Assembly (NCBI RefSeq): GCF_988243305.1
Contig: NZ_OZ547136.1
Direction: 5' to 3' (one strand)
DNA: 64,000 nt
In this document: piece by piece, positions 47,450 to 47,770 of the stretch
Position numbering within the stretch: the stretch's first letter is position 1
How the letters are laid out: each line of letters starts with the position of its first letter
Position numbers and translations under genes: made by a program
Notes under the pieces: generated by a model
What the model saw: the letters and a program-made list of their open reading frames with translations, nothing else
Told to the model about the DNA's origin: nothing
Database searches by the model: none

Positions 47450-47770
47450 ATACGCATCAGGTATACACCGCAGCGCCTGATGCGACGCTGTTGTGTCTTA
47501 TCAGGCCTACGAGTTCAGTGCTGTGTGTAGGTCGGATAAGGCGCTCACGCCGCATCCGACAATAACAGCATTGCCTGATGCGACGCTGCCGCGTCTTATC
47601 AGGCCTACGAGTTCGGTGCTGTGTAGGTCGGATAAGGCGTTCATGCCGCATCCGACAATAACAGCATTGCCTGATGCGACGCTTGCGCGTCTTATCAGGC
47701 CTACGAGTTCAGTGCTGTGTAGGTCGGATAAGGCGTTCACGCCGCATCCGGCAATAACAGCCTTGCCTGA
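47450..47770. repeat. BIME array: about three tandem units of roughly 99 bp, each made of two alternating REP palindromes
   Basis: GCCTGATGCGACGCT...GCGTCTTATCAGGCCTACGAGTTCAGTGCTGTGTAGGTCGGATAAGGCG(T/C)TCA(C/T)GCCGCATCCGACAATAACAGCATT repeated with point differences between holC and pepA. Confidence 0.9.

Follow-up and report, generated by a model that had tools for sequence, protein, structure and literature searches.

The window, by which we mean the whole 64,000-nucleotide stretch of DNA analyzed here, carries pepA, holC and valS in the same orientation on its minus strand, as both the open reading frame list and matches to annotated E. coli genomes indicate. The upstream gene, pepA (47776-49287, with its stop codon at 47776-47778), encodes leucyl aminopeptidase, and is followed by holC (46979-47422), which encodes DNA polymerase III chi, and then by valS (44124-46979); RefSeq annotates identical DNA as pepA and holC. 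Downstream of pepA, and upstream of holC-valS, lies a spacer of 353 bp (47423-47775), which is filled by an array of repeats; the 1.4-kb pepA-holC segment that contains the array is 100% identical in strain EP91B. Tandem Repeats Finder delimits the array at 47475-47770, with a period of 96, 3.1 copies, 93% matches, 1% indels and a score of 504, and a gap-free repeat finder returns start-to-start spacings of 98, 96 and 96, the units themselves being 98, 96 and 96 bp long. Any two of the three units are 91-94% identical and differ at 6-9 places, including a 2-bp indel. The sequence and both programs thus agree with the original prediction that an array lies here, and its description of near-identical units with a few point substitutions is a fair one; its unit length of 99 bp is slightly too long, and its start at 47450 too early, as the array proper begins at 47475 and the DNA at 47453-47461 contributes only a half-palindrome. 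The remaining 30 nt before holC (47423-47452, minus strand) form a leader which, when alleles are compared, turns out to be common to those with repeats and to an allele that has none.

Read along the plus strand, each unit consists of a 36-nt palindrome, a linker of 14-16 nt, a 35-nt palindrome in the opposed orientation and a linker of 11 nt. The 36-nt palindromes, GCCTGATGCGACGC-loop-GCGTCTTATCAGGCCTAC, lie at 47475-47510, 47573-47608 and 47669-47704, and we refer to them as Z2-type REPs no. 1 to no. 3, counting from holC. The 35-nt palindromes, GTAGGTCGGATAAGGCG-loop-CGCCGCATCCGRCA, are Y-type REPs no. 1 to no. 3 at 47527-47561, 47623-47657 and 47719-47753. When compared with published REP queries, the long GCCTGATGCGACGC...CTTATCAGGCCTAC palindromes are best matched by the long REP query of Durrant et al., and the GTAGG...CCGCATCCGACA palindromes by the TGCCGGATGCGG... 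REP query. Each unit therefore has two opposed palindromes, each of which folds at -17 to -21 kcal/mol (plus strand); all six REPs have a GTAG or CTAC foot (in the third unit, for example, CTAC at the 3' end of the Z2 REP and GTAG at the 5' end of the Y REP on the plus strand), and an internal stem mismatch is seen in the folds. The linker that follows the 36-nt palindrome is GAGTTCRGTGCTGT(GT): between the CTAC and GTAG feet of the first unit it is 16 nt long (GAGTTCAGTGCTGTGT, 47511-47526), and its equivalents at 47609-47622 and 47705-47718 have 14 nt. The 11-nt linker, ATAACAGCATT, occupies 47562-47572 and is repeated at 47658-47668, with ATAACAGCCTT in the corresponding place at 47754-47764. 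At the pepA edge, a terminal partial Z2 REP, GCCTGACGCAA (47765-47775, plus strand), abuts the pepA stop codon, and in the minimum-energy fold it pairs with the half-palindrome CGCATCAGG at the holC edge (47453-47461, plus strand). A 9-nt inverted repeat, CGCATCAGG (47453-47461) and CCTGACGCA (47766-47775), hence brackets the array and closes its predicted minimum-energy fold, and it is kept in every Escherichia allele that we examined, including the one-unit allele of K-12. This anatomy, together with the flanking genes, bears out the view of the locus as a tandem BIME array with opposed REPs between holC and pepA.

REP and BIME elements have been known since the 1980s, and the array in the window is an ordinary member of this class of repeats. 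Two kinds of BIME are distinguished: BIME-2 combines z2 and y, is repeated several times in tandem with short linkers between, and varies in copy number among strains, whereas BIME-1 combines z1 and y, is single-copy and has a long L linker, often with an IHF site (Ton-Hoang et al., 2012, PMC3333891). Three GCCTGATGCGACGC...CTTATCAGGCCTAC palindromes alternate here with three inverted GTAGGTCGGATAAGGCG...CCGCATCCGRCA palindromes, which is the z2/y arrangement; they are repeated in tandem (3.1 copies at period 96), are separated by linkers of 11 and 14-16 nt, have the GTAG/CTAC foot along with the internal stem mismatch, and vary in unit number from strain to strain, with three, two and one units in our sample of genomes and a four-unit allele besides. 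The array is thus BIME-2 in every defining feature for which a sequence can be inspected. It shares with other BIME-2 elements the alternating z2 and y REPs, the short linkers, the tandem and extragenic arrangement, the strain-variable copy number and, as the one-unit K-12 allele shows, cleavage by gyrase, and differs from them in nothing essential: there are three units here where K-12 has one, and the linkers are specific to the locus, as is usual for BIME-2. With BIME-1, or the RIB/RIP elements, the array has in common the pairing of a Y REP and an inverted Z-type one, and the wider REP/BIME superfamily does include some members that bind IHF. However, the IHF sites of that superfamily sit in the long L linker of the single-copy z1+y BIME-1 (PMC3333891), whereas the array in the window is z2+y, tandem and short in its linkers, and the spacer (47423-47775) contains no match to the IHF consensus WATCAANNNNTTR. 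The statement in the original prediction that such arrays bind IHF is therefore a conflation of the two BIME classes, and we regard it as extremely improbable that the array is an IHF-binding element of the RIB/RIP, BIME-1 type.

The accompanying statement about gyrase has fared better. Gyrase cleavage sites are over-represented in a subset of BIME-2, where they fall mostly in y REPs and are independent of transcription (Sutormin et al., 2019). The one-unit K-12 allele of this very locus is among the elements for which in vivo sites have been published by Topo-Seq: table DS3 of that study lists an 83-bp BIME-2, '<holC-<pepA', in K-12 W3110, with two cleavage sites with ciprofloxacin, one with rifampicin plus ciprofloxacin, none with microcin B17 and two with oxolinic acid (Sutormin et al., 2019). 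The K-12 allele is thus already present in the published BIME-2 and gyrase-cleavage tables, and a literature search for a paper on the pepA-holC spacer specifically gave nothing relevant. By analogy with K-12, the Y REPs of the window array would act at the DNA level as a transcription-independent site of gyrase cleavage.

That unit number differs among strains, a check suggested along with the original prediction, proved correct when the two flanks alone were used as a query against 5,426 complete E. coli genomes. In 5,422 of the 5,426, no more than about 800 bp separates the flanks, and unit-number classes were called by flank-to-flank span in an evenly spaced sample of 59 of the genomes in which both flanks are close. 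The three-unit allele was found in 29 of these 59 (~49%), the two-unit allele in 10 (~17%) and the one-unit allele of K-12, MC4100, NCM3722 and similar strains in five (~8%), while the other 15 have a 133-bp spacer without a REP. A direct search with the latter allele recovered it from 1,401 of the 5,426 complete genomes (25.8%). At the other extreme, a strain labeled E. coli, SCPM-O-B-8794, has four units in a spacer of 455 bp. The two-unit allele corresponds to units 1 and 3 of the window, and in the K-12 allele the Z2 REP of unit 1 runs in register into the linker and Y REP of unit 3, which indicates that alleles differ by the loss or gain of whole units. In-register changes of this kind, through slippage or unequal recombination, are what would be expected to shift unit number, with the REP-associated transposase, TnpA-REP, as the presumed original source of the units. 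Units are also more alike within arrays (93.8% identity) than between them (90.4%), a difference reached by none of 5,000 label permutations, and this indicates local homogenization or turnover.

In the allele without a REP (L003 1024-1156, from E. coli TH9F11), an unrelated 103-bp palindromic segment containing CCCTCTCCCTTAGGGAGAGGGTTAGGGTGAGGG takes the place of the BIME. Its core of ~55 nt is itself a dispersed repeat, found at a median of six places per genome; it may belong with the old 'Box C' family, which it resembles, and a literature search under that name yielded nothing usable. A DNA-pattern scan anchored on the N-terminal codons of holC, which covered 99 loci across the Enterobacteriaceae, located a Z2/Y array at the same site in E. 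albertii (three units), E. whittamii (two) and Escherichia sp. MOD1-EC7003 (one). The arrays of E. albertii and E. whittamii imply that the BIME is older than E. coli and that the allele without a REP is derived. In other genera, the spacer has a median length of 122 bp and palindromes of its own. The 286-bp pepA-holC spacer of Pseudocitrobacter faecalis (L017) contains a tandem array of a CCCTCTYCCTCAGGGAGAGGG palindrome, 61 bp repeated 3.3 times, so that a different repeat family has also formed an array between these two genes.

The array is also a target for IS621. The natural target of this element is the 11-nt sequence ATCAGGCCTAC, with a CT core (Durrant et al., 2024, PMC11208160), and the array contains three exact copies of it, one in each Z2 REP, starting at 47500 (47500-47510), 47598 (47598-47608) and 47694 (47694-47704); there are six in the whole window. 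This agrees with the known occurrence of IS621 targets within REPs (Choi et al., 2003; Durrant et al., 2024, PMC11208160), with the distinction that the array is a target rather than a part of the insertion sequence and is unoccupied in the window. The one IS621 that the window does contain, a complete copy of this bridge-RNA-guided member of the IS110 family (1,279 bp, 4200-5478, plus strand), is in a different REP, as had been noted: it interrupts, at ...AATCAGGCCT^ACGC..., a short Z1-like REP in the spacer between msrA and paeA (ytfL), with flanks at 4173-4199 and 5479-5550. The corresponding site in strain EP91B is empty. A partner Y REP lies ~40 nt downstream of the REP that bears the IS621, across an AT-rich linker, and this REP pair (about 4173-5550) looks like one of the BIME-1 type.

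The suggestion that other genomes be inspected for REP-targeting insertion sequences at the pepA-holC site had a positive outcome. The flanks are split in three genomes, and in two of these (2 of 5,426 complete genomes) IS621 lies inside the array. In strain CUVET20-416, it resides within a divergent two-unit allele; in GPEC403-625, excising it in silico restores exactly the 353-bp allele of the window. Since the array backgrounds differ, the two insertions are independent events. Both occurred at the CT core of the holC-proximal Z2 REP no. 1, at ...ATCAGGCCT^ACGA (loci L005 and L007), and leave IS621 (5357-6635 in L005) 86 bp upstream of the holC ATG, with its transposase gene pointing in the direction opposite to holC. 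With IS621 between pepA and holC, holC-valS must be expressed in these strains without read-through from pepA; no sigma-70 consensus was found in the holC leader that is left beside the element.

As RNA in the pepA sense, the spacer of the window is predicted to fold at -165 kcal/mol, with a z of -9.2 relative to dinucleotide shuffles, well outside what chance would give. No U-tract (Rho-independent) terminator was found on either strand of 47423-47775, nor was a sigma-70 promoter consensus found in this spacer. The presence of stable structure between the two genes extends well beyond Escherichia: a strong hairpin (at least as stable as -15 kcal/mol within 44 nt) occurs in the spacer of 92 of 92 Enterobacteriaceae species as against 31 of 92 shuffles, with medians of -23.5 and -14.3 kcal/mol, respectively, and the E. 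coli allele without a REP also has one. In a set of 16 distinct units taken from this locus, 98.7% pairing is seen in the REP stems, and variable columns are fewer within stems (8 of 48) than elsewhere (23 of 50; p = 0.002). A covariation test on the same 16 units revealed no compensatory stem changes, and one-sided changes favor neither strand clearly once an invariant Z2 G·T pair is set aside, so the conservation of the stems could reflect recent common descent or homogenization, not selection on structure.

What such an array might do for its neighbors is best judged from REP325, which lies between yjdM and yjdN and is likewise a Y/Z2 array (Qian et al., 2015, PMC4550694; Harris et al., 2026), and for which the experimental record is the most informative and indicates that it is both a stabilizer of the upstream mRNA and a partial Rho-dependent terminator. 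Deletion of REP325 lowers the yjdM transcript and raises that of yjdN, and the termination is partly sensitive to bicyclomycin (Harris et al., 2026, preprint). Like the array here, REP325 consists of tandem Y and Z2 REPs between co-oriented genes, and its units match the same Rfam model as those of the window. It differs in having 5.8 units of 100 bp and other linkers, and also in orientation, as the yjdM transcript reads iY and then Z2 whereas the pepA transcript reads Y and then iZ2. Extrapolating from REP325, the six consecutive hairpins would make up the untranslated 3' end of the pepA mRNA, where they would block 3'-to-5' exonucleases and thereby stabilize it; they would also partly stop transcription before it reaches holC-valS and, there being no U-tract, would probably do so in a partly Rho-dependent manner. 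The same study notes that the effects of REPs depend on context (Harris et al., 2026, preprint). REPs that start no more than 15 nt after a stop codon form a class that is reported to stall ribosomes; the first hairpin on the pepA transcript, Y-type REP no. 3, begins 22 nt after the pepA TAA and so falls outside this class. We consider it very probable that the BIME-2 identity of the array and the proposed mechanism of RNA structure, gyrase cleavage and unit turnover, taken together, are right, with the role as stabilizer and terminator being deduced from the behavior of REP325. Whatever the function, it must be dispensable or replaceable, given that REPs are missing from ~26% of genomes, that alleles have anywhere from one to four units, and that IS621 is tolerated; and since many viable strains lack the array, have a shorter one or carry IS621 within it, any role would be a modulatory one.

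Several other readings of the array must be weighed against this one. Rfam model RF02564 (naRNA4) matches two of the units over its full length of 77 nt, with scores of 77.9 bits at 47530-47605 and 82.2 bits at 47626-47701 on the plus strand, both above the gathering score of 59.5, and REP325 itself has the same Y/Z2 architecture, which might be taken to mean that the units are genes for naRNA4-like sRNAs that act by binding HU and condensing the nucleoid, the role first proposed for REP325. However, the matches that exceed the threshold are antisense to pepA-holC-valS, the scores on the minus strand, which these genes share, being 55.7 and 51.9 bits and thus below the threshold, and the model was built on a REP325 unit, that is, on a Y and a Z2 REP plus a short linker (Qian et al., 2015, PMC4550694). 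It also picks out other Y/Z2 REP pairs in the window, at 14499-14577 (plus strand, 67.3 bits) and 20740-20817 (plus strand, 86.2 bits), and is therefore a detector of BIME-2 units in general. As REP325/naRNA4 is moreover reported not to compact the nucleoid measurably (Harris et al., 2026, preprint), which puts this role in dispute even for REP325, we find the sRNA explanation very unlikely; matches to naRNA4 mark generic BIME-2 units and should not be taken as sRNA genes. Less plausible still, and deserving practically no credence, is the idea that we are dealing with a small CRISPR array or with a repeat that encodes protein. A 36-nt palindromic repeat at a regular spacing of 96-98 bp does invite comparison with CRISPR, and the caution in the original prediction that a naive repeat finder could be misled is reasonable, but any filter for spacer diversity would reject the array, as its 'spacers', of 62 and 60 nt, share 92% identity. 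The repeat, furthermore, is a REP that is dispersed throughout the genome, and no cas genes are annotated in the neighborhood; we accordingly rejected a CRISPR array. As to coding potential, reading frames without a stop run through the array for up to 98-99 codons, and we considered those at 47493-47792 (plus strand, 99 codons), 47507-47740 (minus strand, 77 codons) and 47457-47651 (minus strand, 64 codons). These frames are open only because 96 nt equals 32 codons, however, and in alleles whose units are 98 bp long they are interrupted, so they too were rejected. Such frames could lead gene callers to annotate hypothetical proteins here.

A different kind of objection is that the array is essentially neutral, selfish DNA, made up of REP doublets that were seeded by the REP-associated transposase and grow or shrink in number through slippage, without mattering appreciably to pepA, holC or the topology of the chromosome. 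This is partly compatible with the explanation that we favor, and much of the variation at the locus is what it would predict: the array is polymorphic both in its presence and in its copy number, insertions of IS621 are tolerated, the stems lack compensatory changes, and homogenization within arrays is typical of tandem repeats in general. It accounts less readily for the strong hairpin that is retained in the spacers of all 92 species whatever their repeat family, well above the shuffled controls, or for the fact that even the allele without a REP supplies one. Nor would it lead one to expect that gyrase cleaves the K-12 allele in vivo (Sutormin et al., 2019) or that the array is older than the split among E. 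coli, E. albertii and E. whittamii and has lasted ever since. On balance, we think it rather doubtful, though by no means far-fetched, that neutrality is the whole explanation.

If the array does act as a stabilizer and partial terminator, it is tempting to speculate further that its unit number, from zero to four, serves as a heritable, lineage-specific dial on both the pepA message and the transcriptional leak into holC-valS, with the IS621 targets making it a recurrent landing pad. We would not ourselves bet on this proposal, but were it true, the landing of an IS621 could abruptly uncouple two transcription units, pepA and holC-valS. Irrespective of how that may turn out, nature has provided at a single spacer, between a dispensable gene and an essential operon, an allelic series that runs from no REP through one to four units to an insertion of IS621, which offers a means of testing a recent idea, namely that REP arrays work as tunable regulators in 3' untranslated regions.

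Some further features of the window came to light along the way. An Rfam match to Ysr276, a Yersinia antisense sRNA family, lies at 48535-48729 (plus strand, 180 bits), antisense to the pepA coding sequence, and may do no more than register how well pepA is conserved, without there being a genuine antisense RNA in E. coli. Matches at gathering level were also obtained for the sRNA ES239 (583-705, plus strand), for the sRNA STnc450 (4057-4114, minus strand), immediately upstream of the REP that bears the window IS621, and for the Mg2+ riboswitch of the mgtA leader (30867-30982, plus strand). Strain EP91B, so similar around pepA and holC, has an IS1 between treB and treR, at a place that corresponds through L002 to about 28905-29602 of the window. 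Rfam also identifies a tRNA-Leu at 59742-59823; in EP91B, the region 3' of this tRNA (59742-64000 of the window by correspondence with L002) contains an integrase gene, an IS1 and large helicase genes, and has the appearance of a genomic island at a tRNA.
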